A DNA stretch of 32,000 nucleotides, from contig NZ_CP042911.1 of assembly GCF_008065095.1 (NCBI RefSeq), positions 3,960,001-3,992,000 of the forward strand, in the 5' to 3' direction. The notes beneath the pieces were generated by a model. The model had not been told where the DNA came from. It made no database searches and saw only the letters and a program-made list of their open reading frames with translations. Source of the DNA: Gemmata obscuriglobus (GTDB lineage: Bacteria; Planctomycetota; Planctomycetia; Gemmatales; Gemmataceae). The position numbers were made by a program, and so were the translations under genes. Below, one piece after another: positions 2,400 through 30,803 of the stretch. How positions within the stretch are numbered: position 1 is the first letter of the stretch; each line of letters opens with the position of its first letter.

Positions 2400-2733
2400 G
2401 CCCGCGGATTACGTGACGCGTCCGGGGCGGGGTGTGGTATCCTGCGAACTGTCGCAGCACATCGTAACGGGAGCCGAAATGCAAGAACAGCAAACCACAG
2501 CGTTCCTGACGTGGTTGACAGAAGGTGGCCGGGCGCGGCTGCGGTTCCAGACGGAAATGCCGGGAGCGTCGAGTGAGCTGTGGCTGGGCGCGGTGGTGGT
2601 GACCCGCGCCGACCTGTCCCGCATCGCGCGGCACTGGTCGGGTCTGACGGTGGACGCAGCGGGTACGCTGGTTGACCAGTGTATCGCCCGGGTGCGGGCT
2701 TCAGAGGGGGGCGAGTGGCGGCCCGCGGTCTAG
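2398..2733 (+). CDS. Hypothetical small protein (111 aa, or 84 aa from ATG 2479)
   Basis: GC3-rich ORF with plausible composition (MQEQQTTAFLTWLTEGG...VVVTRADLSRIARHW...). No recognisable motif. The antisense ORF 2363..2761 is P/R/A-rich and looks like a shadow. Confidence 0.4.
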   Translation: MPADYVTRPGRGVVSCELSQHIVTGAEMQEQQTTAFLTWLTEGGRARLRFQTEMPGASSELWLGAVVVTRADLSRIARHWSGLTVDAAGTLVDQCIARVRASEGGEWRPAV

Positions 2734-2816
2734 CCGTCGGCGGATCTGCAGAGTCGCTCACGGTTCAGAAATATCGCTGTGGTGGGTACCACAGCAGCGG
2801 CCGAGAAGCGATCGGC

Positions 2817-4247
2817 CTAGCCGATGGTGACCCGGTCGCCGGGGACCGGCACCGCCACGTCGTCGAACCCCAGCCCGCGAAGCGTGTCGGCCAGCGCGTC
2901 CGCCTGCTCGCGCTCCCCGTGGATCAGGCGAACCTTCCCGACCTGCCCCGCCAGTCCCTTCAGGTACGCCGTGAAATCGTTCTTGTCCGCGTGCCCGCTG
3001 AACCCGTCCAGGTGAACCACCTCGATCCACTTGTTCCAGTCGCGGCCTTGAAACCGCACCGTCGGCTTCGGCTCCATCAGCTTCCGGCCCACGGTCCCCG
3101 GTGCCTGGAAGCTCACGAGGATGATGCTGCAGCGCGGGTCGTCGACCAGCTGCTTCAGGTGCTGCTGGATGCGCCCCGCGTCGCACATCCCGCTCGACGC
3201 GATGATCACGGCCGGGCCGGACCGGGTCGCCAGCAGGGTGCTCTCCTCGAAATCCCGCACGTAGGTGACGCCGTCCCCGCCGAGCAACCCGTGCCCCTCG
3301 CGAAGCGCCTGTGCGATCTCCGCGGACAGGCTGTTCGGGTGCGCCCGGTACACCTCCGCCACCTCCGACGCCAGCGGGCTGTCGACGTACACCGGCATCT
3401 TCGGGATCTTCCCCTCGCGCAGCCCTTGCTGGAGGACGTGAATGATGAGCTGCGTCCGCCCGAGGCTGAACGCCGGGACCAGCACTTTCCCGCCGCGCTC
3501 GACGGTGTCGCGGATCGCGGCGTAGAGCTTCGTCACGGTTTCGGCGAACGAGCGGTGCAGCCGGTTCCCGTAAGTGCTCTCACAGACCAGCACGTCCGCG
3601 GGGGGGACGGCGCCGGTGGGCTTGAGGATCGGCAGCCCGCGGCGGCCCATGTCGCCGCTGAAGGTGAGCGTGCGGTCGCGGTCCGGCGCCGCGATCGTCG
3701 CGTGGACCATCGCGGAGCCGAGCACGTGCCCGGCCTCAATGAACCGGAACCGCACGGTCTTCGTCACGTCGGCCTCGCGGCCGTAGGGCACCGACACCAG
3801 CCGCGTGAACACCTTCTCCACGTCGTGGACCGTGTACAGCGGCTGCACCCACGGCTCGGCGTAGTTCCGCGCGATGTTGATGTGCGCCGCGTCCTCTTCC
3901 TGGATCTTGGCGCTGTCGGCCAGCATCACCCGGAGCAGGTCCCGGGTGGGCGGCGTGCAGTAGATCGGCCCGTCGAACCCTTGGCGGATCAGCGTCGGCA
4001 GGTTGCCACAGTGGTCGATGTGGGCGTGGCTGACGATAACCGCATCGATCTGATGGGCGTGAAACGGGAAGTGCCCGTTCCGCTGGCGGGCTTCTTCGCG
4101 GCGCCCCTGGTGGAGGCCGCAGTCGAGCAGGATCTTGTGGTTCCCGGTCTCAATGAGGTGCATGGAGCCGGTGACGCCACCGGCGGCGCCCCAGAAGGTC
4201 AGTGTTGGGTCCGAGGTCGACGGACCGGGTGTCGCGGTGGGTTTCAT
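2817..4247 (-). CDS. MBL-fold beta-CASP family hydrolase, probable ribonuclease (RNase J/CPSF-like), 476 aa
   Basis: Metallo-beta-lactamase motif HAHIDHCGNLP is present, followed by ESTYG, a beta-CASP-like middle region and FSGHADKND near the C-terminus. This order is typical of beta-CASP RNA-metabolising MBL proteins. Confidence 0.85.
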   Translation of the reverse strand: MKPTATPGPSTSDPTLTFWGAAGGVTGSMHLIETGNHKILLDCGLHQGRREEARQRNGHFPFHAHQIDAVIVSHAHIDHCGNLPTLIRQGFDGPIYCTPPTRDLLRVMLADSAKIQEEDAAHINIARNYAEPWVQPLYTVHDVEKVFTRLVSVPYGREADVTKTVRFRFIEAGHVLGSAMVHATIAAPDRDRTLTFSGDMGRRGLPILKPTGAVPPADVLVCESTYGNRLHRSFAETVTKLYAAIRDTVERGGKVLVPAFSLGRTQLIIHVLQQGLREGKIPKMPVYVDSPLASEVAEVYRAHPNSLSAEIAQALREGHGLLGGDGVTYVRDFEESTLLATRSGPAVIIASSGMCDAGRIQQHLKQLVDDPRCSIILVSFQAPGTVGRKLMEPKPTVRFQGRDWNKWIEVVHLDGFSGHADKNDFTAYLKGLAGQVGKVRLIHGEREQADALADTLRGLGFDDVAVPVPGDRVTIG

Positions 4248-4443
4248 TCACCCATTCTAACCTGCCGACCGGTAACCACAAAGACGCGAGCCGAGCGGTT
4301 CGGGCCGGCTCACGGGATACGAGAGGTATGCACAACCCGCAGGACCGACACACCTGAATCCCGGCGCGTGCGATTCGAGGGTAGCGACCGCCCGCCGCAC
4401 TCTTCCGGCGCTCTTCATTCCCGGACACGCGGGCCGTTTACGA

Positions 4444-4486
4444 ATACGATCCCCGGGCACGAGAAAGCCGCGCCCGGGGATCGTAT
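4444..4486. repeat. Perfect 15-bp inverted repeat ATACGATCCCCGGGC / GCCCGGGGATCGTAT with a 13-nt spacer; candidate operator or 5' UTR hairpin
   Basis: Read directly from the sequence. It ends 42 nt upstream of the SDR start codon (4529), in the divergent spacer shared with the beta-CASP gene. The structure is certain; the function is not. Confidence 0.5.
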
Positions 4487-4528
4487 AAACTGCCTGCCGC
4501 CTCAGCCGTGCGAACGAGGAGCCAGTCA

Positions 4529-5272
4529 ATGGGTCAGCCGCTCAAAGGGAAACGCGCTCTGGTCACCGGTGGGAGCCGTGGGATCGGGGCCGCCATCGTG
4601 AAACGCCTCGCAAAGGAGGGAGCGGACGTGGCGCTCACCTTCGTCAGCAAGCCGGACGAGGCCGGGCAGGTGGCCGAGGCGGCCAAGGCCCTCGGCGTGC
4701 GGGCGCTGGCGATTCAGGCCGATGCCTCGGATGCCGACGCGGTCATTAAAGCGGTCGAGCAGGCGGCGAACGAGTTCGGCGGGCTCGACATCCTGGTGAA
4801 CAATGCCGGCATCGCCACGATGGGGCCGATCGACTCGTTCTCCCTCGCGGACTTCGACCGGACGTTCGCGGTCAACGTGCGGGCCGCGTTCGTGGCCGCG
4901 CAGGCGGCGGTGAAACACATGGCGGAGGGCGGGCGGGTCATCAACATCGGCAGTTGTAACGCCGAGCGGATGCCGTTCCAGGGCGGCGCGGTGTACGCCA
5001 TGAGCAAGTCGGCGTTGTTGGGCCTGGTACAGGGACTGGCGCGCGACCTCGGGCCGCGTGGCATTACGGTCAACAACGTGCAGCCGGGGCCGGTGGACAC
5101 GGACATGAACCCCGCCAACGGCGCGTTCGCCGAATCTCTGAAAGCGCTGATGGCGCTACCGCGGTACGGGCACGTCGACGAGGTGGCGGCGATGGTCGCG
5201 TACCTGGCCGGACCGGAATCCGGGTTCGTGACCGGGGCCAGCCTGACCATCGACGGTGGGTTCACCGCGTGA
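4529..5272 (+). CDS. Short-chain dehydrogenase/reductase (SDR) family oxidoreductase, 247 aa
   Basis: Motifs TGGSRGIGAAI (TGxxxGxG cofactor site), NNAG and YAMSKSAL (YxxxK catalytic pair). ATG 4529 is preceded by GAGGAG at 4515-4520. Confidence 0.9.
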   Translation: MGQPLKGKRALVTGGSRGIGAAIVKRLAKEGADVALTFVSKPDEAGQVAEAAKALGVRALAIQADASDADAVIKAVEQAANEFGGLDILVNNAGIATMGPIDSFSLADFDRTFAVNVRAAFVAAQAAVKHMAEGGRVINIGSCNAERMPFQGGAVYAMSKSALLGLVQGLARDLGPRGITVNNVQPGPVDTDMNPANGAFAESLKALMALPRYGHVDEVAAMVAYLAGPESGFVTGASLTIDGGFTA

Positions 5273-5424: not shown

Positions 5425-5568
5425 TTACACGTCCTCTCGGGCATCTTTACCGAGTGCGGCCCACAGGGCTGACAGGTCATGAACCGTGGTATCGCGATCC
5501 GGTACGTTCGGGCACCCGTCATCAGCCAGGCGGTACAGGTCAGTGCGGTCGACGGTGTCGTTCTGCAT
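5425..5568 (-). CDS. Candidate small ORF (47 aa: MQNDTVDRTDLYRLADDGCPNVPDRDTTVHDLSALWAALGKDAREDV)
   Basis: Below the ORF-track size cutoff; I translated it by hand. It has an ATG start with GAGG about 8 nt upstream and mostly G/C third positions. No homology information is available. It lies in an otherwise non-coding 545-nt spacer. Confidence 0.25.
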   Translation of the reverse strand: MQNDTVDRTDLYRLADDGCPNVPDRDTTVHDLSALWAALGKDAREDV

Positions 5569-5817
5569 GGTACGGCCTCTGCGTTTGTGCGACGCCCGGG
5601 AATCCTATCCTTGCGTCCCCGGCGATAGATGTAACCGCAACCTGCGTGCCAAGAGGACTGTTGAAATACTGACCGGGCCTCCTTTCCTGAACGCGTGCTC
5701 TCCCATGCCAAAGACGCTTAAATAGTACCCTTCATTCTGCGGTCGGCACGGAGCAACTACCGCCGCCGCGTTCTCCATTCAGCCAGCGTTCGGCGGCGTG
5801 GGCGGATTCGTTTCGCT

Positions 5818-9537: not shown

Positions 9538-10779
9538 TCACTTCGACTTGGGCGGATCGGTCGCGCTCCCGCTCGCCCCGGGCGGCGCCCCTGGTCCCGC
9601 GTTGCCGGTTGGCGCACTGGGCTGGGCCGCCGGATCTGGTCGCGGCTTGATCTCACCGGGTTGGGGATCGATTTCCATATCCGGCTGAATGCGTGCCAGG
9701 CCGTTGATGATGACCCGATCCGCCGGCGCCAGCCCTTCGACGACCCGCAACCCCATCGACTGCGGCCCGAGCTTGACGTGCTTCACCGCGACGCGGTTGT
9801 TCGGGCCGACCACGTACACCACCCGCTCCGCCTGGTCGCTCTGAACCGCGTCGTCGGGGATCAGCGTCGCTTCCGTCGCGGTTTTCAGCGGGATGCGGCC
9901 GCGCACGAACAGACCGGGACGGAGCAGCCGCGGCGCCGGGTTCGGGAACGTGCCTCGAATCTGAAGGGTGCCGGTCGAAGGGCTCAGCTCGGAGCTGGCG
10001 AAGTCGATCGTGCCCTTGTGCGGGTAGCCGGTTTCGTCGCGCAACTGGATCTCGACCGGCGGGCCGGTGCCCGGTGCCGATGACACCCGCCCCTCGCGCT
10101 GCGCCCGCCGGAGGTACGCGAGCACCGTTTGCTCATCAACCGTGAAGTACGCGTAGGTCGGGTCTACAGTGGTCACCCGGGTCAGCACGGTGCCCGATCC
10201 GGTGCCGCCAGTGACCACGTTCCCCTCGTTCACGAAGATGCGGTCCACGCGCCCGTCGAAGGGGGCAACGATGGTGGTGTACGAGAGGTTCAGCTTCGCC
10301 TGTTCGACGTCCTTTTGGCTCTTCTCGACGTTGGCCTTCGACACGAGCAGGTTGGCCCGCGCCTGGTCGTACTCTTCCTTGCTGGCGGCTCCGGCCATAA
10401 GCGTCTTGTTGACCCGCGCCTCGTTCGCGGCCGCCTGCTCCCGCTGCGCCTCCGCGCTTTTGACCCCGGCTTCGGCCAGGCCGAGTGCGACCTGGAACGG
10501 CTCGGGGTCTATCTCGATCAGCCTCGCTCCGGCCTTGACCTCGGCCCCTTCCTGGAACAGCACCTTCTGAACGTATCCGTTCACCCGCGCACGAATGTCG
10601 GCCGTTTTGACCGCCGCCAGCGTGCCGGTCAGTTCCGTGAACTCGGTCACGGGACGCACGAGCGGGGCGGCGACGGTAACCTTGGGCGGCCCGACATCCT
10701 TGGACTGTGCGGGCGGCTTCTTGTTACACCCCAGCGCCGACAACCCGACAACGAGTGCGAACAGGGGCAACAGACGCAT
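9538..10779 (-). CDS. RND efflux periplasmic adaptor (membrane fusion protein), lipoprotein, 413 aa
   Basis: Signal peptide and lipobox MRLLPLFALVVGLSALGC. MFP features: a coiled-coil hairpin (AEAGVKSAEAQREQAAANEARV...) and YTTIVAPFDGRVDRIFVNEGNVV. Start moved from 10923 to ATG 10779, where the signal peptide begins. The gene lies directly upstream of the RND permease on the same strand. Confidence 0.9.
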   Translation of the reverse strand: MRLLPLFALVVGLSALGCNKKPPAQSKDVGPPKVTVAAPLVRPVTEFTELTGTLAAVKTADIRARVNGYVQKVLFQEGAEVKAGARLIEIDPEPFQVALGLAEAGVKSAEAQREQAAANEARVNKTLMAGAASKEEYDQARANLLVSKANVEKSQKDVEQAKLNLSYTTIVAPFDGRVDRIFVNEGNVVTGGTGSGTVLTRVTTVDPTYAYFTVDEQTVLAYLRRAQREGRVSSAPGTGPPVEIQLRDETGYPHKGTIDFASSELSPSTGTLQIRGTFPNPAPRLLRPGLFVRGRIPLKTATEATLIPDDAVQSDQAERVVYVVGPNNRVAVKHVKLGPQSMGLRVVEGLAPADRVIINGLARIQPDMEIDPQPGEIKPRPDPAAQPSAPTGNAGPGAPPGASGSATDPPKSK

Positions 10780-11147
10780 CTGCGTACTCCAATAACCACC
10801 CGGCTCCGGCGGTACGCCGTCCGACAGTAGCAGCGCGCGTGCCGAAAACCGAAACGGGTAACTCACGACGGGAATACCAGACGCGCCCACGAACTGAGCG
10901 TGATGGCGCGGCGTCGCGGGCATGGGGCCGGTCGCATCCGGCCACCCGCACCAATCAGCGGCAACAACGTTCGCGCGCGTGCCCGTGGCTTAATGATCCG
11001 ATTTCTGGCCGAATTTTGACTTCGCCTCAGTTCGATCGGCCGACTGGACTTCTGGCGGGGAGTGACTTACGGTTCAACCGGGAATTTTCATGGAACGCGC
11101 AGCCGGGACGGTCCGTCCGCCGACCGGGTTACAGGGCACCCCAAGCT

Positions 11148-14100
11148 ATGAACTGGCTCCGCGAGCCCGACGGCGAACCGCTGCCCGGATACCGGCTCCT
11201 CGAACCCATCGGCACCGGCGGGTTCGGCGAGGTGTGGAAGTGCATCGCCCCGGGGGGCATCCAGAAGGCAATCAAGTTCGTATACGGCAACCTCCACGCG
11301 CTCGACGGCGACGACGCCCGCGCGGTCCAGGAGATGAAGGCGCTCGAGCGCGTCAAGCAGGTGCGCCACCCGTTCGTGTGCCAGATCGACCGCATTGAGG
11401 ACGTCGGCGGCGAGCTGGTCATCGTGATGGAGCTGGCCGACCGCAACCTGCACGAGTGCCTGGTCGAGTACCAGGAGGCGGGCCGGCCCGGCGTCCCGCG
11501 CGACATCCTGCTCGGCTTCCTCGACGACGCGGCCGTCGGTCTGGACCACCTGATCGAAAAGCACAACCTCCAGCACCTGGACGTGAAGCCGCGCAACCTG
11601 TTCATGGTTGCGGACCGCGTGAAGGTGGCCGACTTCGGGCTCGTGAAGCAGCTCGAGCGGTCCAGCTCGTCGGGGCTGATGGGCGGCGTCACCCCCATTT
11701 ACGCCGCGCCGGAAACGTTCCAGAACAAGATCAGCAAGCACTCGGACCAGTACAGCCTCGCCATCGTGTACGTCGAGCTGCTGACCGGCAAGCGGCCGTT
11801 TCCGGGCAAGAACATCCGGCAGCTCGCGCTCCAGCACATGAGCGAACCGCCGGACCTGTCGATGCTGCCCGACGCGGACCGCCCGGTGGTCGCCCGCGCG
11901 CTGTCGAAGAACCCGGACGAGCGGTGGCCCAGTTGCACCGCGTTCGTCCGCGCGCTGGGCACCCGCGACCCGAACGGGAGCGGGTCCGGCAGCGGCGTCC
12001 GCGAGCCCGGGGCGTGGGCGAAGGCCGGCCGCACGGTCCACGACGTGGACCTCACCCCGCCGGCGGCGCCGCGGGGCGGGGGCGGGCGGGCGGCCGTACT
12101 CGACCGGCCCGCGCCCCAGTCGGCCGGGGCCGAGCCGGACTCGGATATCGACGAGGAGCACCTGCTCGGCGCCACCGCGCCGCAACGGGAGGTGGGGGTG
12201 CTGCGCCCCACCATCCTCATCGGGGTGGGCAGCTTCGGGCGGCGGGCGCTGCAGGAACTCCGGTGCCGGCTCACCGACCGCGTCGGCGACGTGGTCCAGG
12301 TGCCGTGCTTCCGGTTCCTGTACGTCGACTGCGACCCCGACGCGGTGACGAAGGCGGTCAGCGCCCCGCCGGACGTGGCGCTGGGCACCGACGAGGTGTT
12401 CCCGGTGCCGCTCCAGCCGGTCACTCAGTACCGGCGGCGCCAGCTCGAACAGATCCTGGACTGGCTGCCGCGGGAGAAGCTGTACGCGATCCCGCGGAGC
12501 CTCCACGCGGGCGGCTCGCGCGCCCTCGGCCGGCTCGCGTTCTGCGACAACTACCTCCGCTTCGTCACCCGCCTGCGGCGCGAGCTGCAGATCGCCACGC
12601 ACCCCGAGTCGCTGTCCCAGTCGTCCGACCAGACCGGGCTGCAGGTGCGGGACAACACGCCGCAGGTGTACGTGTTCGCCAGCGCCGCCGGCGGGTCCGG
12701 GGGCATGCTCATCGACCTGGGGTACGCGGTGCGCCGGGTGCTTGCCCGGGTCACCCCGGCCGAGACCCAGGTGACCGCGTTCGTGTACGCGTCCGCGCCC
12801 AACGACCCCAGCATGTCGGACCAGGAGCTGGCGAACCTGTACGCCGCCGTCACCGAGCTGAACCACTACGCCGACCCGGACGTGCAGTTCGTCGCGCACT
12901 ACGGCGGCCCGGAGGGGCCGAAGGTCGAGAGCCAGGGGCTCCCGTTCACCGCCACCTACCTGATGCCCATGCCGGAGCGCACGGCCGGCGCCTTCCGGGA
13001 CTGTCTGTCGCACCTCGCCGGGTACGTGTCGCACGACATGACCACCCCGCTGGGGCCGGCGCTGCAGCAGATGCGCACCCGGCCGGTCGGGTTCGACCGC
13101 AGCCCGTTCCGCTCGTTCGGCACCTACGGGGTCTGGTTCCCGCGCGGGCTGCTGCTCCGCGCCGCCGCGCAGAAGATCTGCGTGGGCCTGCTCCGGGAGT
13201 GGAAATCCGACGCCAACCCGCTCGACCCGACCTCCGTTCAGCACACGGTGAACCGTGCGACCGCCGACCCGCGGCTGAAGCCCGACGCGGTCCGCGGGCA
13301 GCTCGAGCAGGAGGCCGTGCGCGGCCAGGAGGGCGGCCCGGGCGACCAGATCGAGCGCTGGCTCAACGGGCTGGAGGCCCAGCTCAACTCGACCGGGCGG
13401 CGGCCGGACGCCGCGGCGTGGTCGCGCGCCGTGTGGGAGCAGGCCCGCGACCTCATCGGGCTGCGCCCGCCCGGCGAGCAGGACAGCTCTGTCCGCAGGA
13501 GCCGCACGTCGAAGGTGTGGGACGAGGCGGTGAAGCGCGTCGCCGAGATGTGGGGCAACGAGTTCGAGGCGGTGGTGCGGCCGCTGGAGGAGCTGCCCGG
13601 GCGCCGGCTCGGCGCGATCGGCTCGGCGCTGCGGCGGCTGGCGGTGGTGTGCGGCGAGTGGGCCACCGCCGCGGACGCCCGCACCCAGCAGCTCGAGGTG
13701 AAGTCCCGCCAAGTGCGGGCCGACGTGCAGGCCGCGCTCGATGTGTGCCAGGCGGGCAGCGGCACGTTCAGCTTCTTCGGCGGCCGGTCTGGTCGCAGCA
13801 TGCGGCACTTCCTGGACCAGCTCCGGGCGTTCACCCGAATCCGGCTCCAGGAGGACCTGGCGGACGCGACCGCCAAGTTCTACCGCGCGCTGCGCACGAA
13901 GGTGGACGAGCGGGTCAGTGAGCTGGGGTACTGCCGCACCCGGCTGGACGTGCTGCTCGCCACCCTGGAGTGCCCGATCGCGAACCTGCCTGTGTCCTCG
14001 GACACCCCCGTGGCGGCGATGTCCGAGGAAGCACTTCAGCAGACGCTGCATCCCACGAACACACTCAACGTGGTGCTGCCGTCGGGCGAGACGCATCTCG

Positions 14101-14681
14101 ACCGGTCCGCGCGGCGGGTTGTCAAGTCGATGAAGCCGGACGACGTGCTGCGGCTGGAGATCGCGCTCCAGAAGCTGGTGCTGGAGCCGCGCGGCGGGCT
14201 GACCGCGCTGTGCCTACTGAACGCCGACATGAGCCGCACCCTCGTGGCCCCCATCGTCGAGCAGACGACGGCGTTCCTGAGCGAGTTGCTGCCCGTCACG
14301 GACGTGACGGAGGTGGAAGTGTCCACGTCGCGGGCGCGGAAGGCGGACCTGCCGACGCGGATCCGCGACTACTATGCCCGCGCCGTCCCGCCGTGCGGCT
14401 CGGACGCGGGGGCGCAGTCGTTCGTGCTCGTTCCCGACAGCGAGTCCGGAAAGGCGTTCGCGGGGCTGGTCAAGAAGGCCGTCCCGAGCGCCCTGATGAT
14501 TCCGGTGAGCGGGTCCGCGACGGACCTGATGTTCTGCCGCGAGCGCACCAACCTGCTGCCGACGGAACTGGCCGAGTTGCTGGCCGTGTGCCAGCCGGCC
14601 TATTACCAGTCGCTGGCCGCACCACAAACCGCCCCGCACGCCCGCTTCGATGTGACCGAATGGCTGCCATTAAGCGAGTAG
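11148..14681 (+). CDS. Hanks-type Ser/Thr protein kinase fused to a tubulin/FtsZ-like (Tubulin_2-like) module and a long helical C-terminal region, 1177 aa
   Basis: Kinase motifs GTGGFGEVW, AIKFV, HLDVKPRN, ADFG and YAAPE lie in aa 15-270. Residues about 352-620 read ILIGVGSFGRRAL...FLYVDCD...HAGGSRALGRLAF...VFASAAGGSGGMLIDLG. Start set at ATG 11148 (MNWLREPDGEPLPGYRLLEPIG...). The ORF-track start at 10707 would overlap the divergent adaptor gene. Confidence 0.9.
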   Translation: MNWLREPDGEPLPGYRLLEPIGTGGFGEVWKCIAPGGIQKAIKFVYGNLHALDGDDARAVQEMKALERVKQVRHPFVCQIDRIEDVGGELVIVMELADRNLHECLVEYQEAGRPGVPRDILLGFLDDAAVGLDHLIEKHNLQHLDVKPRNLFMVADRVKVADFGLVKQLERSSSSGLMGGVTPIYAAPETFQNKISKHSDQYSLAIVYVELLTGKRPFPGKNIRQLALQHMSEPPDLSMLPDADRPVVARALSKNPDERWPSCTAFVRALGTRDPNGSGSGSGVREPGAWAKAGRTVHDVDLTPPAAPRGGGGRAAVLDRPAPQSAGAEPDSDIDEEHLLGATAPQREVGVLRPTILIGVGSFGRRALQELRCRLTDRVGDVVQVPCFRFLYVDCDPDAVTKAVSAPPDVALGTDEVFPVPLQPVTQYRRRQLEQILDWLPREKLYAIPRSLHAGGSRALGRLAFCDNYLRFVTRLRRELQIATHPESLSQSSDQTGLQVRDNTPQVYVFASAAGGSGGMLIDLGYAVRRVLARVTPAETQVTAFVYASAPNDPSMSDQELANLYAAVTELNHYADPDVQFVAHYGGPEGPKVESQGLPFTATYLMPMPERTAGAFRDCLSHLAGYVSHDMTTPLGPALQQMRTRPVGFDRSPFRSFGTYGVWFPRGLLLRAAAQKICVGLLREWKSDANPLDPTSVQHTVNRATADPRLKPDAVRGQLEQEAVRGQEGGPGDQIERWLNGLEAQLNSTGRRPDAAAWSRAVWEQARDLIGLRPPGEQDSSVRRSRTSKVWDEAVKRVAEMWGNEFEAVVRPLEELPGRRLGAIGSALRRLAVVCGEWATAADARTQQLEVKSRQVRADVQAALDVCQAGSGTFSFFGGRSGRSMRHFLDQLRAFTRIRLQEDLADATAKFYRALRTKVDERVSELGYCRTRLDVLLATLECPIANLPVSSDTPVAAMSEEALQQTLHPTNTLNVVLPSGETHLDRSARRVVKSMKPDDVLRLEIALQKLVLEPRGGLTALCLLNADMSRTLVAPIVEQTTAFLSELLPVTDVTEVEVSTSRARKADLPTRIRDYYARAVPPCGSDAGAQSFVLVPDSESGKAFAGLVKKAVPSALMIPVSGSATDLMFCRERTNLLPTELAELLAVCQPAYYQSLAAPQTAPHARFDVTEWLPLSE

Positions 14682-14687
14682 CCGAAG

Positions 14688-14825
14688 AGTCTCAGGTCCA
14701 CAAATCTTGTGTGGTCTCAGGTCCACAAGTCGCAAGTCCCAAGTCGGAGGCACTGATTGCGGCCTTCGACTTGGGACTTGCGACTTGTGGACCTGAGACC
14801 ACTCAAGATTTGTGGACCTGAGACT
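14688..14825. repeat. 138-bp near-perfect palindrome (63-nt arms, 12-nt loop) filling the spacer between the convergent kinase and ftsH genes; probable bidirectional terminator or REP-like element
   Basis: Arms 14688-14750 and 14763-14825 pair at 61 Watson-Crick positions, with one G-T (14747/14766) and one T-T mismatch (14710/14803). Each arm contains a 15-nt direct repeat GTCTCAGGTCCACAA (14689 and 14714) and three tandem heptamers CAAGTCG CAAGTCC CAAGTCG (14726-14746). It starts 6 nt after the kinase stop and ends 4 nt before the ftsH stop. Confidence 0.9.
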
Positions 14826-28140: not shown

Positions 28141-28983
28141 ATGAAGCGGTACGGAGTCGGCGCGGTCCTCTTCGGGTTCGCCCTGTCGCTCGCCGGCTGC
28201 GGGCCGGAAAAGGTGCTGCCGACCGACCTCCTGAAGCCCGGCAGCGGCCCGGTTCCGTCGCCGGTGCCCACGAAGTCTGATCCCGAGGCCCTGGCGGTTA
28301 TCGACCAGGCCGTGAAGGCGTTCACCGGCGGAAAGCCGGACCTGCTCGCGAAAGGCAAATACTGCCGGGTCGCGATGAAGGGGCTGATGTACTCGGTGGA
28401 CAGCTCTAATCAATCGGACGCGGTGCGAACGTACGCCGCCGCGTGGCCGGACCGGCTCCACGTCACCAACGACAGTGAATCGTTCGGAAGTAAGCGGGCG
28501 GTCGCTTCCTGGCTCCGCCGCCCGGAGTTCGTGATCACCAGCAACGGAACCGAGGTGCGCCCGCCGAACCCGGCCGAGGTCGAGCAGAACCTCGCCAGCG
28601 ATCTGGTCGGGCAATTGTGGATGGCGTTCCTGCTCCCGGCCACCGATCCAAAAGCGGTCGTGTTCGACCCGCAGACCATCAGCCTCGACAGCCGCGAACT
28701 CAAGCTGGTGAAGCTCTCGCTCGGCGAGTACCCGGTGTACCAACTCTTCTTCGACACGAAATCGAACGCGCTGGTGCGGGTCGAGTACACCATCACCGCA
28801 ACCGGCGTCCCGCGGCGCACGACGATGATCTTTGCGGAGCACAAGCCGGGACCGGACGGGTTACTCCTGCCGTACCGCCTGGAGTGCCTCCACAATAAGT
28901 CGGTCGTCGAGAAGTGGACGGTCGAGAAGTGGGAGTTCCCGGAGACGATCAAGGACGACGAGTTCATGCCGAAGAAGAAGTAA
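28141..28983 (+). CDS. Hypothetical lipoprotein, 280 aa
   Basis: Signal peptide and lipobox MKRYGVGAVLFGFALSLAGC. GGAGGG lies 7 nt upstream of ATG 28141. The mature part is beta-rich in character and no family is recognised. The ORF-track start at 27898 adds an R/P-rich leader and is rejected. Confidence 0.75.
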   Translation: MKRYGVGAVLFGFALSLAGCGPEKVLPTDLLKPGSGPVPSPVPTKSDPEALAVIDQAVKAFTGGKPDLLAKGKYCRVAMKGLMYSVDSSNQSDAVRTYAAAWPDRLHVTNDSESFGSKRAVASWLRRPEFVITSNGTEVRPPNPAEVEQNLASDLVGQLWMAFLLPATDPKAVVFDPQTISLDSRELKLVKLSLGEYPVYQLFFDTKSNALVRVEYTITATGVPRRTTMIFAEHKPGPDGLLLPYRLECLHNKSVVEKWTVEKWEFPETIKDDEFMPKKK

Positions 28984-29265
28984 GCAAGAAGAGATTGGCC
29001 ACAAAAACGCACAAACGGGAACCAGAAACGAAGACGAATGAGAGCAGAAGAGGATTAGCCGCAAAAAAGCACAAAGGGCACAAAAGAAAACCAAAGACGA
29101 AGACAATAGAGGAGCGTTTTAAACTCACTATTCTGTCTTCGTCTTTGGTTTCTTTTTGTGCCCTTTGTGCTTTTTTGCGGCTAACATCCTGCCTTCAGTC
29201 TCTTCGTCTTTGGCTTCTTTTTGTGCCCTTTGTGCGTTTTTGTGGCCAATCCTCTTCTTGCTTGC
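28984..29265. repeat. 282-bp compound palindrome made of four copies (two direct, two inverted) of an A/T-enriched unit of about 60 nt, filling the whole spacer between convergent genes
   Basis: I aligned the left half against the reverse complement of the right half by hand. The outer arms (28984-29015 vs 29229-29261) are identical except for a 1-nt indel. The inner arms share an identical 30-mer, TAGCCGCAAAAAAGCACAAAGGGCACAAAA, plus CCAAAGACGAAGACA. The central loop is about 29110-29127. Unit consensus is roughly GAAGAGGATTRGCCRCAAAAAMGCACAAAGGGCACAAAAAGAAACCAAAGACGAAGA. The element begins 1 nt after the lipoprotein stop and ends 2 nt before the MCE gene stop. Confidence 0.9.
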
Positions 29266-29267
29266 TT

Positions 29268-30803
29268 CTATGGCGGATAGCCCTGAACCGGCGGCGGTTT
29301 GCCGTTGTTCTGTGGCTCGAGCCACGTCGGACCACTGAACGGGCGGGCCGACGACGCCGGCGGCCAGTCCGGGCGGTAGCTCGGCGTCCCGGGCAGCTCC
29401 TTCAACCCGCCGCTGCCGCGGAGCGCGCCGCCGACCCCGATCAGTTCCGGGCGGCGGGCCACCTTGTCCGCGAACACCTCCAGGTCGCGGGTGATCTTCT
29501 CCGAGCGCGCCAGGATGCGGGCCAGCGAGCCCGCGGCCAGGTCGAGGTTCTGGTACACCGTGGGGTCGCTGATGAGCTTCTGAACTGTGCCGTTCTCCTT
29601 GCCGAACGCGTTCACGATTCCGCGGATCTCCGCGATCAGTTTACCGAGCTGCTCGGCGGATTCCGCGACCCCCTTCACGAGCCCCTCCGAGCGTGCCGCG
29701 AGCGGTCGGGTCACCGCCCGCACGTCCGCCACCACCTGCCCCACTTCTGTAACTCGGTCGTCGATGTTCTTGACCGTCTTTTCAGCGCTGTCCAGTAAGG
29801 TGCCGAGCGCGCCGGCGAACTTGACCACGTTCAGCGCCACCGAGTTGAGGTTCTTGAGCAGTTCCGCGAACTGTTTGCGGTTCTCCGGCGACAGCACGTC
29901 GTTCACGTTATCGAACGCCGTCCGCGCCCCCTTCACCGCGGCCGCCACCTCGGGCTCCAGGCGCTTGACGGCGGCACGAACGTCGTCCACCGCCGGCTTG
30001 ATGGTGCGGAGCGCGTCCTGGGCGTCGCGGAAGAGGGTCTTCAGGTTCGGTTCTTCGGGCACGAGCGGGGGTTGGGTCGAGACGAACCCGACGGGCAGCT
30101 CCGCGCCGATCGGAGCCGCCCCCGGCGCGGGCGGTCCCTTGGGGGGAACCGGACCGTCGGGGCCGAGAATGTTCTGAATCTTGGCGTTGGTTTTGCGCAG
30201 CTCGGGGATGAACGCGCGGACGTCCTTGAACAGCGCGGTCGCCTCGTCGGCGGTGGCCTCGATCCGCGGGCCGACCTCGCTCAGCCGTTCCAGTTTCTCG
30301 AACGCCTTGGTCATGCGTTCGAGCGACTGCTGCGCGTTCTGGAGCGCGTTCGACGCCGGGGCCACGAGGCTCCGCGGGGTGATCGGCGTGACGCCCGGGA
30401 TTTCGCTGCCCGGCGGCCAGTCCTCCCCGCGCGGAACGGGCTGGCTGTCGGGACCGAGCTTCGGAAGGAAGTCCACCGCGGTGTCGCCGCTGAGCAGCCC
30501 GCGGGTGATGTGCGCTTCTTCCGACTTCCGCGGCAGGTACTTGCGGTCGAGTTCGATGCGCACCCGCACCTGCCCGCTCTCGGGATCGAGTTCAACCCCC
30601 GTGACCTGGCCGATGCGGACGCCCGATTTGCGGATCGGCGTGCCCGGCCCGAGCCCCGGCGCTTCGGAGAAAAGGACCGAGTATTTGACGTCGGACGAAA
30701 ACACACGGGGCGTGCCGCCGAATAGTACGACGAGGCCCGCGAGCGCGAGCAGCGACGCGCCCATGAACAGCCCCAACCGCATCCGTAGCGCACGCTCGGC
30801 CAT
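29268..30803 (-). CDS. MCE/MlaD-family protein (N-terminal TM, MCE domain, long helical region, Pro-rich tail), 511 aa
   Basis: The opening LGLFMGASLLALAGLVVLFGG...YSVLFSEAPGLGPGTPIRKSGVRIGQVTGVELDPESGQVRVRIELDRKYLPRKSEEAHITRGLLSGDTAVDFLP follows the MlaD/Mce domain pattern (TM, then ...V...GV.VG.V..I.L.......V...I.....I......A.I...GLLG..Y). Confidence 0.85.
   Translation of the reverse strand: MAERALRMRLGLFMGASLLALAGLVVLFGGTPRVFSSDVKYSVLFSEAPGLGPGTPIRKSGVRIGQVTGVELDPESGQVRVRIELDRKYLPRKSEEAHITRGLLSGDTAVDFLPKLGPDSQPVPRGEDWPPGSEIPGVTPITPRSLVAPASNALQNAQQSLERMTKAFEKLERLSEVGPRIEATADEATALFKDVRAFIPELRKTNAKIQNILGPDGPVPPKGPPAPGAAPIGAELPVGFVSTQPPLVPEEPNLKTLFRDAQDALRTIKPAVDDVRAAVKRLEPEVAAAVKGARTAFDNVNDVLSPENRKQFAELLKNLNSVALNVVKFAGALGTLLDSAEKTVKNIDDRVTEVGQVVADVRAVTRPLAARSEGLVKGVAESAEQLGKLIAEIRGIVNAFGKENGTVQKLISDPTVYQNLDLAAGSLARILARSEKITRDLEVFADKVARRPELIGVGGALRGSGGLKELPGTPSYRPDWPPASSARPFSGPTWLEPQNNGKPPPVQGYPP

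Follow-up and report, generated by a model that had tools for sequence, protein, structure and literature searches.

The spacer between two convergent genes in a 32,000-nt stretch of the Gemmata obscuriglobus genome (hereafter the window, whose numbering is used for all positions) is wholly occupied by a 282-bp compound palindrome of four units, A-B-B'-A', at positions 28984 to 29265. [quoted passage not shown] The dispersal of a conserved core through many genomes, the close association of its copies with gene ends, and the geometry of the arms are the observations on which this proposal is built.

A dispersed repeat family with a conserved core

The pattern TTRGCCRCAAAAAMGCACAAA, a 21-mer that matches all four units of the palindrome, was searched against species-representative genomes totaling 596 Gb. 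At least 120 stretches were found in 78 assemblies, with nine phyla represented among the matches listed, while about 3 would be expected by chance (calculated for 596 Gb). The suggestion of the first-pass annotation that the palindrome is one instance of a class rather than a single element is thus borne out. Acidobacteriota, mostly Pyrinomonadaceae, account for 62 of the at least 120 stretches listed, Planctomycetota for 20 (G. algarum with five loci, Gemmata metagenome-assembled genomes [MAGs], Frigoriglobus, Gemmataceae CJuql4, Pirellulales, and Phycisphaerae), Verrucomicrobiota for 17 (Victivallales included), and Geobacteraceae together with a related "delta proteobacterium" MAG for 7. 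Fewer were listed for Abditibacterium (5), Chthonomonadales (3), Bacteroidota/Ignavibacteria (3), Gammaproteobacteria (2), and Sumerlaeales (1). G. obscuriglobus itself is not among the matches listed by this species-representative scan. Many MAGs carry several stretches per genome among the matches listed, and mis-binning cannot explain the spread because isolates (G. algarum and Abditibacterium utsteinense) and megabase-sized long-read contigs are also among the matches.

Conservation extends beyond the search pattern. Positions 22 to 31, which lie outside it, are 68 to 88% conserved over 127 matches (consensus AGGCACAAAA), giving a 31-nt core of the form TT(A/G)GCC(A/G)CAAAAA(A/G)GCACAAA(A/G)(G/A)GCACAAAA in arms that are built from short modules, each GC(A/G)C plus a run of A. 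A typical copy is a hairpin in which TTAGCCACAAAAA(A/G)GCACAAAA(G/A)GCACAAAA is followed by a loop and then by the complement. An ungapped inverted partner was found within 300 nt downstream of 78 of 129 matches and upstream of only 3, which puts the A-rich arm on the 5' side and the T-rich arm on the 3' side; with gapped alignment, hairpins make up 81 of 121 elements. Elements of the family span about 45 to 220 nt, their 31-nt arms conserved and their loops and interiors variable, and their ends read TT(A/G)GCC and GGC(T/C)AA (TTGGCC and GGCCAA in Gemmata copies). Within the Gemmataceae, the whole hairpin of ~120 nt, loop motif included, recurs at many unrelated loci.

An nhmmer profile located 204 arms in 860 kb of fetched genomic loci (designated by L-numbers below). 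It also revealed that the search pattern had taken in only a minority variant of the Acidobacteriota arm, the commoner arm having a G at position 14 that the pattern excluded; the family is therefore larger than the scan suggests. An apparent conserved A/G mismatch between arms was rejected as an artifact of the same exclusion. In two lineages, Geobacteraceae and Opitutales, the 21- to 31-nt core is embedded in longer lineage-specific repeats. Geobacteraceae copies (L014, L028, L056, L069, and L097) have two core arms around a conserved, non-palindromic interior of ~70 nt, with conservation continuing outside the arms. Opitutales copies (L008, L019, L078, L102, and L114) have a single arm that follows a conserved ...GTGGAGGAATRA and has other sequence behind it.

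The palindrome in the window has the following parts and neighbors.

28976 to 29269, no strand: full dyad symmetry, both stop codons included (TAA at 28981 to 28983; CTA, which is TAG on the minus strand, at 29268 to 29270)
28984 to 29045, plus strand: unit A, outer left, the most degenerate; without the 9-nt module GGCACAAAA; start of the core (21-mer) at 28995 to 29015
29046 to 29112, plus strand: unit B, inner left; 31-nt core TTAGCCGCAAAAAAGCACAAAGGGCACAAAA at 29055 to 29085
29106 to 29133, no strand: central loop or apex ATAGAGGAGCGTTTTAAACTCACTATTC, an AT-rich apex of the TTTAAA type common to other Gemmataceae copies
29127 to 29190, minus strand: unit B', inner right, inverted; core at 29154 to 29184
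29192 to 29265, minus strand: unit A', outer right, inverted; complete core at 29219 to 29249
28141 to 28983, plus strand: left flanking gene, 280-aa lipoprotein; starts MKRYGVGAVLFGFALSLAGC, lipobox LAGC, no Pfam domain, stop at 28981 to 28983
29268 to 30803, minus strand: right flanking gene, 511-aa MlaD/MCE-family protein with an MlaD domain, stop at 29268 to 29270

Repeat search and unit alignment confirmed the architecture first described for this element, two tandem units followed by their two inverted copies. The inner arms (29055 to 29105 and 29134 to 29184) are 51 nt long and 96% complementary around a 28-nt loop, and the outer arms (28993 to 29018 and 29226 to 29251) are 26 nt long and 96% complementary. 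A third arm pair (28976 to 28993 and 29252 to 29269; 18 nt, 94%) carries the symmetry across both stop codons. The units on each side are direct repeats of one another (29136 to 29184 versus 29201 to 29249, 92%, spacing of 65). The 30-mer said to be identical in the inner arms, TAGCCGCAAAAAAGCACAAAGGGCACAAAA, is indeed exact in both inner units, at 29056 to 29085 (plus strand) and 29154 to 29183 (minus strand); it recurs with 3 mismatches at 29219 to 29248 (minus strand) and had 0 matches in shuffled sequence. The outer arms had been described as matching except for a 1-nt indel. The indel is present, but the rest of that description does not hold, for unit A also lacks the 9-nt module GGCACAAAA and diverges from A' towards the center. 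Direct modules, GCCACAAAAA, GCACAAAA, and GGCACAAAA, follow one another in each arm, which has no internal dyad, and runs of A recur there every ~9 to 10 nt. A 300-nt region around the element has folding energies of -189.6 kcal/mol as plus-strand RNA, -187.2 as minus-strand RNA, and -122.2 as DNA, with z-scores of -22, -21, and -21, respectively. The earlier statements that the palindrome is less GC-rich than its flanks (0.515 versus about 0.64 to 0.70) and that it lies between a lipoprotein gene and an MCE gene also agree with the analysis, the lipobox and the MlaD domain being found in the respective reading frames.

Origin, growth, and constraint of the palindrome

Comparison of synteny in relatives, which the first-pass annotation had proposed, found this site filled in G. 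algarum and empty in G. palustris and G. massiliana. The MlaD orthologs of these species are 97%, 78%, and 77% identical to the G. obscuriglobus protein, respectively, and G. palustris and G. massiliana have the same convergent pair, with orthology of the lipoprotein confirmed. The distance between the two stops is 284 nt in G. obscuriglobus and 240 nt in G. algarum, where the same spacer holds a related compound palindrome, versus 12 nt in G. palustris and 11 nt in G. massiliana. From these empty spacers of 11 to 12 nt, we conclude that the palindrome was gained in the G. obscuriglobus/G. algarum lineage. Synteny of this locus is absent from Frigoriglobus tundricola.

DNA identity between G. 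obscuriglobus and G. algarum is 94.5% for mlaD, 85.5% for the lipoprotein gene, and 66% for the palindrome (79% without gaps), and whole modules were gained or lost between the two palindromes. Both inner 31-nt cores are nonetheless invariant between the species, save for a symmetric A/G change (TTAGCC versus TTGGCC) that is present in both arms. Orthologous copies also persist across species in the Acidobacteriota, where 44 nt of arm and loop are identical in a trio of species whose flanking coding DNA is roughly 80 to 85% identical (estimated by eye). Since the cores are unchanged while the rest varies, the core must be constrained or continually homogenized, and the remainder of the element is not.

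Compound forms with an intact inner pair and shorter or degenerate outer units recur at other loci, both in the Gemmataceae (L015, L058, L066, L005, L048, L099, and L124) and in the Acidobacteriota (L117, L120, L068, L090, L098, and L108). This recurrence fits the idea, put forward from the window alone, of stepwise duplication with decay of the outer units. Three-unit forms with an extra unit on one side only (L048 and L117) indicate that units duplicate locally. They also weaken the idea that the A-B-B'-A' form arose solely by nesting, with one hairpin inserted into another's loop. The same idea is weakened by the linker between outer and inner units, in which no remnants of a loop are seen and which is complementary as well. 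At several copies the palindrome extends into the flanks, as it does here through both stops. Growth may therefore be pictured as duplication of units in which the inner pair is kept intact and the outer pair decays, with template switching on the hairpin perhaps making both sides symmetric.

Gene ends and a candidate transcript-end hairpin

Copies of the family are essentially intergenic, usually occupy the entire intergenic spacer, and lie singly between unrelated housekeeping genes at a density of about one per 10 to 40 kb (estimated by eye from arm maps). Among 115 arms with an incoming open reading frame (ORF), i.e., one of at least 120 codons reading into the arm, the TAG inside TTAGCC supplies the stop codon in 25, while any other offset accounts for 6 or fewer. 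At two loci (L036, ~2388, and L067, ~7552), the stop of a gene ending in ...FRFNV, which may be ychF, is the TAG of TTAGCC in both species. Tandem spacers hold 46 of the hairpin copies, convergent ones 13, and divergent ones 7. For the background of spacers in these loci, identified with an identical ORF heuristic, the shares are 64% tandem, 21% convergent, and 15% divergent, and the difference is not significant. Placement between convergent stops, which had been put forward as general to such elements, is thus a feature of the G. obscuriglobus locus and not of the family.

These observations suggest how the element might work. In the RNA of either convergent gene, the A-rich 5' arm would pair with the U-rich 3' arm. 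The module boundaries consist of a GYGC clamp followed by a run of four to six U residues and are mirrored by runs of A; in the 3' arm they would place a G/C clamp and then a U-run (GUGCC-UUUU-GUGC-UUUUUU-GUGGC) in succession. As RNA polymerase advanced, ever longer hairpins would form, with a U-rich hybrid following each. This is how intrinsic terminators are laid out, and every unit would present the arrangement two to three times, the A-runs providing it for the opposite direction. The nested hairpin could thus serve as a bidirectional, multistep intrinsic terminator or attenuator and as a block to exonucleases at the 3' end. A stem of this size would block 3' exonucleases and be a potential substrate for RNase III. 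The close tie of copies to gene ends, the filled spacers, and the peak of stop codons at the edge of the element favor such a role. In the literature, inverted repeats are most frequent just downstream of stop codons in every bacterial phylum (PMC13155455), and REPs are reported to act as partial terminators and mRNA stabilizers that correlate with higher expression of convergent pairs in Escherichia coli (bioRxiv 10.64898/2026.03.23.713779).

Several observations weigh against this proposal. A simple consensus scan calls no canonical terminator in the element, and an RNA strand test, which compared sense with antisense stability and G-U counts, gave a weak trend (29 versus 17, P = 0.07). Divergent, promoter-side spacers are not significantly depleted (7 of 66, P = 0.07 to 0.2), and at least one divergent placement is genuine. 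Where the neighboring genes are in tandem, tens of bases at most separate the element from the start of the downstream gene. Behind a strong terminator, a promoter of its own could not be accommodated in that distance, and the tight spacing suggests attenuation rather than full termination. At L067, one arm is fully conserved (31 nt identical) although its partner arm has decayed, which hints at constraint on the primary sequence rather than on pairing. The fetched loci yielded no target-site duplication, autonomous element, or transposase. Finally, a terminator function alone leaves a near-identical 31-mer in nine phyla unexplained, and for this reason explanations based on a selfish element, on DNA-level function, and on a shared factor are kept open below.

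Promoters were also considered as a function of the T-rich arm, but no convincing sigma-70 or sigma-54 match was seen by eye and a promoter scan called none. Unpaired A-rich arms lie directly upstream of start codons or run into them at four loci (L020, 3488 to 3518; L012, 877 to 907; L060, 2889 to 2919; and L062, 3427 to 3457); at the first of these, the single arm reaches the start of an SDR gene, MNRLKDKVAIVTGGA. This suggests that half-elements can become 5' leaders.

Alternative explanations

The family might be a purely selfish miniature transposon with no host function, either a MITE of the TA-targeting IS630/Tc1 type or a product of a hairpin-recognizing HUH system, in which case the position at gene ends would reflect tolerated insertions or TA targets such as stop codons in GC-rich DNA. 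Its filled and empty states at the same site in different lineages, its multicopy dispersal with conserved ends and variable interior, and a spacer usage near background are all as such an element would have them. Ends of the form N-TA-GCC...GGC-TA-N, with the TAG very often being the stop, are expected from insertion into the TA of stop codons, and in Gemmataceae copies the TTTAAA-like apex might itself be a target, which could account for nesting. Yet no consistent direct repeat was found at 17 well-defined copies, the flanks of which tend to be inverted rather than direct repeats; a 2-nt TA duplication could hide in TTAGCC/GGCTAA, but Gemmata copies have TTGGCC/GGCCAA, with no TA at either end. 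The 860 kb of fetched loci contain no autonomous partner or transposase with the same ends and no arm pair that encloses a gene in the manner of a transposon, and a crude regular expression found no ORF with an HUH/Y1 motif among 755 ORFs of these loci. The RAYT/REP-like cognate protein whose presence the first-pass annotation had raised did not turn up in the fetched loci, and the GTAG/CGTC tags of REPs are absent. Plasmids (PLSDB) and phages (INPHARED) gave no match, with the reservation that the BLAST low-complexity filter may hide weak ones, and neither did viral contigs with two patterns. The persistence of orthologous copies whose cores are more conserved than neighboring coding DNA is unexpected of decaying junk, and the three-unit forms point to local duplication. 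On balance, we regard a purely selfish origin as possible but unlikely.

Five DDE_Tnp_1 transposase genes lie beside a DUF1501 gene 4 to 10 kb past the 3' end of the window in G. obscuriglobus (L001, 34 to 6238). G. algarum has ordinary genes (trypsin-like and DAO) at that position, and the cluster is not accompanied by any copy of the palindrome core.

Slightly less probable, in our estimation, is that a trans-acting factor common to the Acidobacteriota, Planctomycetota, Verrucomicrobiota, Abditibacteriota, Armatimonadota, and others recognizes the 31-nt core, in which phased A-runs separate GCC/GCAC clamps. The factor might be a domesticated transposase that copies the core, or else a protein that binds the DNA or has a part in forming or processing the 3' ends of transcripts. 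Support comes from conservation of the core above that of neighboring coding DNA, from the retention of single arms, and from the reuse of the core in different lineage-specific repeats. If the core is recognized by a shared factor, it would offer an entry to how such repeats are made and kept and to transcript ending in the Planctomycetota, Acidobacteriota, and Verrucomicrobiota, groups in which termination signals are, to our knowledge, poorly characterized. It would then represent a new class of cross-phylum cis-element rather than a lineage-specific REP or MITE.

We are more doubtful about an element that functions at the level of DNA, in which phased A-tracts and a long dyad would yield curved or cruciform DNA bound by a chromosomal protein, such as a nucleoid protein or gyrase, which would relieve positive supercoils where genes converge (the proposal made for bacterial interspersed mosaic elements [BIMEs]), or in which a DNA-uptake receptor would recognize a core with phased AT tracts like that of an uptake signal sequence (USS). 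The spacing of A-runs at ~9 to 10 nt in every arm, the single arm kept without its partner at L067, the occurrence of the same core in different repeats of Geobacteraceae and Opitutales, some without a hairpin partner, the very stable fold of single-stranded DNA, and the lack of a clear RNA strand bias are all compatible with this idea. Against it, no binding protein is known or was found, the copies are essentially intergenic and much sparser (about one per 10 to 40 kb, by eye) than known uptake sequences, and DNA can curve or wrap without a fixed sequence, which leaves the conserved GCAC and GCC letters unexplained. The idea is drawn from analogy.

A bidirectional intrinsic terminator that arose locally, is specific to these two genes, and shares no descent with other loci would suit the place between convergent stops, the A-rich 5' and U-rich 3' arms met from either direction, and the very stable fold, but it is contradicted by dispersed copies of the 31-nt core and of the ~120-nt Gemmataceae hairpin in many genomes and is very improbable.

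The last alternative, a spurious inverted duplication introduced by assembly, we consider scarcely credible. The window sequence belongs to complete genome CP025958.1, and the older draft ABGO01000051.1 (L002, 11480 to 12201, compared with L001) agrees with it across the outer unit as far as TTAGCCGCAAAAAAGCA, where it departs into unrelated coding-like sequence; short-read Logan contigs from 20 or more samples also stop within the outer unit. For this strain of G. obscuriglobus, the 282-bp structure is thus known from a single assembly. However, in G. algarum JC717 a contig crosses the related compound palindrome (240 nt) that occupies this spacer, which argues against an artifact, compound copies of the family occur in many independent assemblies, long-read ones included, and repeats of this sort would be expected to interrupt short-read assemblies. 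Long hairpins of this family break or mis-join such assemblies and give rise to spurious small ORFs.

Relation to known repeats and to other palindromes in the window

Intergenic palindromic repeats are a known category, and the proposed transcript-end hairpin shares features with several of its members. REPs are short (20 to 40 bp) imperfect palindromes tagged at one end by an unpaired tetranucleotide, GTAG or CGTC, and REPs, BIMEs, and REPINs are extragenic, multicopy palindromes without target-site duplication (PMC3733652). The present family is likewise non-coding, extragenic, present in many copies mainly just after genes, often compound, and variable in position between relatives, and it too showed no consistent target-site duplication. 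A role as partial terminator and stabilizer of mRNA 3' ends has been proposed for REPs and shown for REP325 (PMC3733652; bioRxiv 10.64898/2026.03.23.713779). The two differ in that the aligned copies here carry no GTAG/CGTC tag, in that the arms are 31 to 65 nt long, not self-complementary, and made of direct GCAC plus A-run modules rather than being a doublet of small REP hairpins, and in that REP families are described as species-specific or shared by some species, while this core is present in nine phyla. No RAYT or TIRYT gene was found near copies in the fetched loci. High copy number and an extragenic location mostly downstream of coding regions, both characteristic of REPs, were found, but a REP or REPIN in the defined sense is ruled out by the missing tag and the non-palindromic arms.

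MITEs such as Correia/NEMIS, ERIC, RUP, and Chunjie are 70 to 300 bp long and have conserved terminal inverted repeats, a variable interior, and an intergenic location beside coding regions. They are cotranscribed and form stable RNA hairpins that alter mRNA fate (PMC3733652), and presence or absence between relatives is seen in both MITEs and the present family. Conserved inverted arms around a non-coding, variable interior, multiple copies, and filled versus empty orthologous sites were all found here. The family is unlike MITEs in that the fetched loci revealed neither target-site duplications nor a related insertion sequence, in that the ends of the Gemmata element are not sharp, its purine-rich palindrome running into the flanks and stops, and in its unusual breadth of phyla.

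Bidirectional terminators resemble the element in their symmetric hairpin, A-rich on the 5' side and U-rich on the 3' side, directly after stops. The element differs from them in that its U-runs lie inside a stem of 50 to 130 bp instead of after a short G+C-rich stem, and the consensus scan was negative. We know of no terminators that share a 31-nt sequence across phyla or are dispersed repeats, pairs of uptake sequences apart. Uptake sequences, i.e., the DNA uptake sequence (DUS) of Neisseria and the USS of Pasteurellaceae, are 9- to 12-mers that occur about once per kilobase within one bacterial family, are common inside genes, and form inverted pairs in terminators. A short conserved core followed by helically phased A/T tracts, often in inverted pairs just downstream of genes, is a likeness to them, but the copies here are far sparser, intergenic, and spread over nine phyla, and a DNA uptake sequence was rejected. 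Integron attC sites, too, are imperfect palindromes (57 to 141 bp) directly after ORFs that often overlap the stop codon. Their boxes read RYYYAAC...GTTRRRY; the ends here are TTAGCC...GGCTAA instead, copies are scattered among housekeeping genes and not in cassette arrays, and no integrase gene is nearby in the window, so attC was also rejected. The element is not a CRISPR array. A DnaA box was considered because core positions 1 to 9, TTAGCCACA, are one mismatch from TTATCCACA; no copy has the T, and the resemblance is probably coincidence.

Searches of the literature by core string, end string, and keyword found no description of the family, only general papers on REPs, MITEs, and inverted repeats. 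Rfam 15 gave no hit at the gathering threshold for the window and ten family loci, and at an E-value threshold the element gave only sub-threshold look-alikes among generic long hairpins (miRNA precursors). Relative to the literature searched, what is new is that the arms are assembled from modules, that compound copies grow in the manner of an onion, that fusion to stop codons is frequent, and, above all, that a cross-phylum 31-nt core is conserved above the level of neighboring genes. REPs and MITEs do not normally extend beyond a species or genus, and how they arise and spread is an old question.

A second palindrome in the window, at 14688 to 14825, has 64-nt arms that are 97% complementary around a 10-nt loop, with an internal duplication of GTCTCAGGTCCACAA[A/G]TC, and spans the spacer between the stop of a kinase/tubulin-like gene (14681) and that of ftsH (14830). 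Its modules, GTCTCAGGTCCACAAGTC and GCAAGTCCCAAGTC, differ from those of the palindrome at 28984 to 29265. The observation that the two share an internally duplicated architecture and are unrelated in sequence stands, both being built from modules, and a related copy of the second was found at a different locus of G. algarum (L099, ~5520 to 5615), which indicates that it also belongs to a dispersed family. The remaining spacers of the window contain only short G+C-rich hairpins.

A different module-built hairpin (AGTTCCGAGTCCCGAGTTGCACGTTCCG and its complement) is present in G. palustris in a tandem spacer just upstream of mlaD (L125, 9900 to 9992). Within the window, a hairpin at 4444 to 4486, with 18-nt arms ATACGATCCCCGGGCACG and CGCGCCCGGGGATCGTAT that are 94% complementary around a 7-nt loop, lies near the end of the ORF at 2679 to 4601. 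The ORF at 10707 to 14681 (plus strand), up to 1,324 aa long, combines an N-terminal Ser/Thr kinase domain with a Tubulin_2 domain, an unusual fusion.

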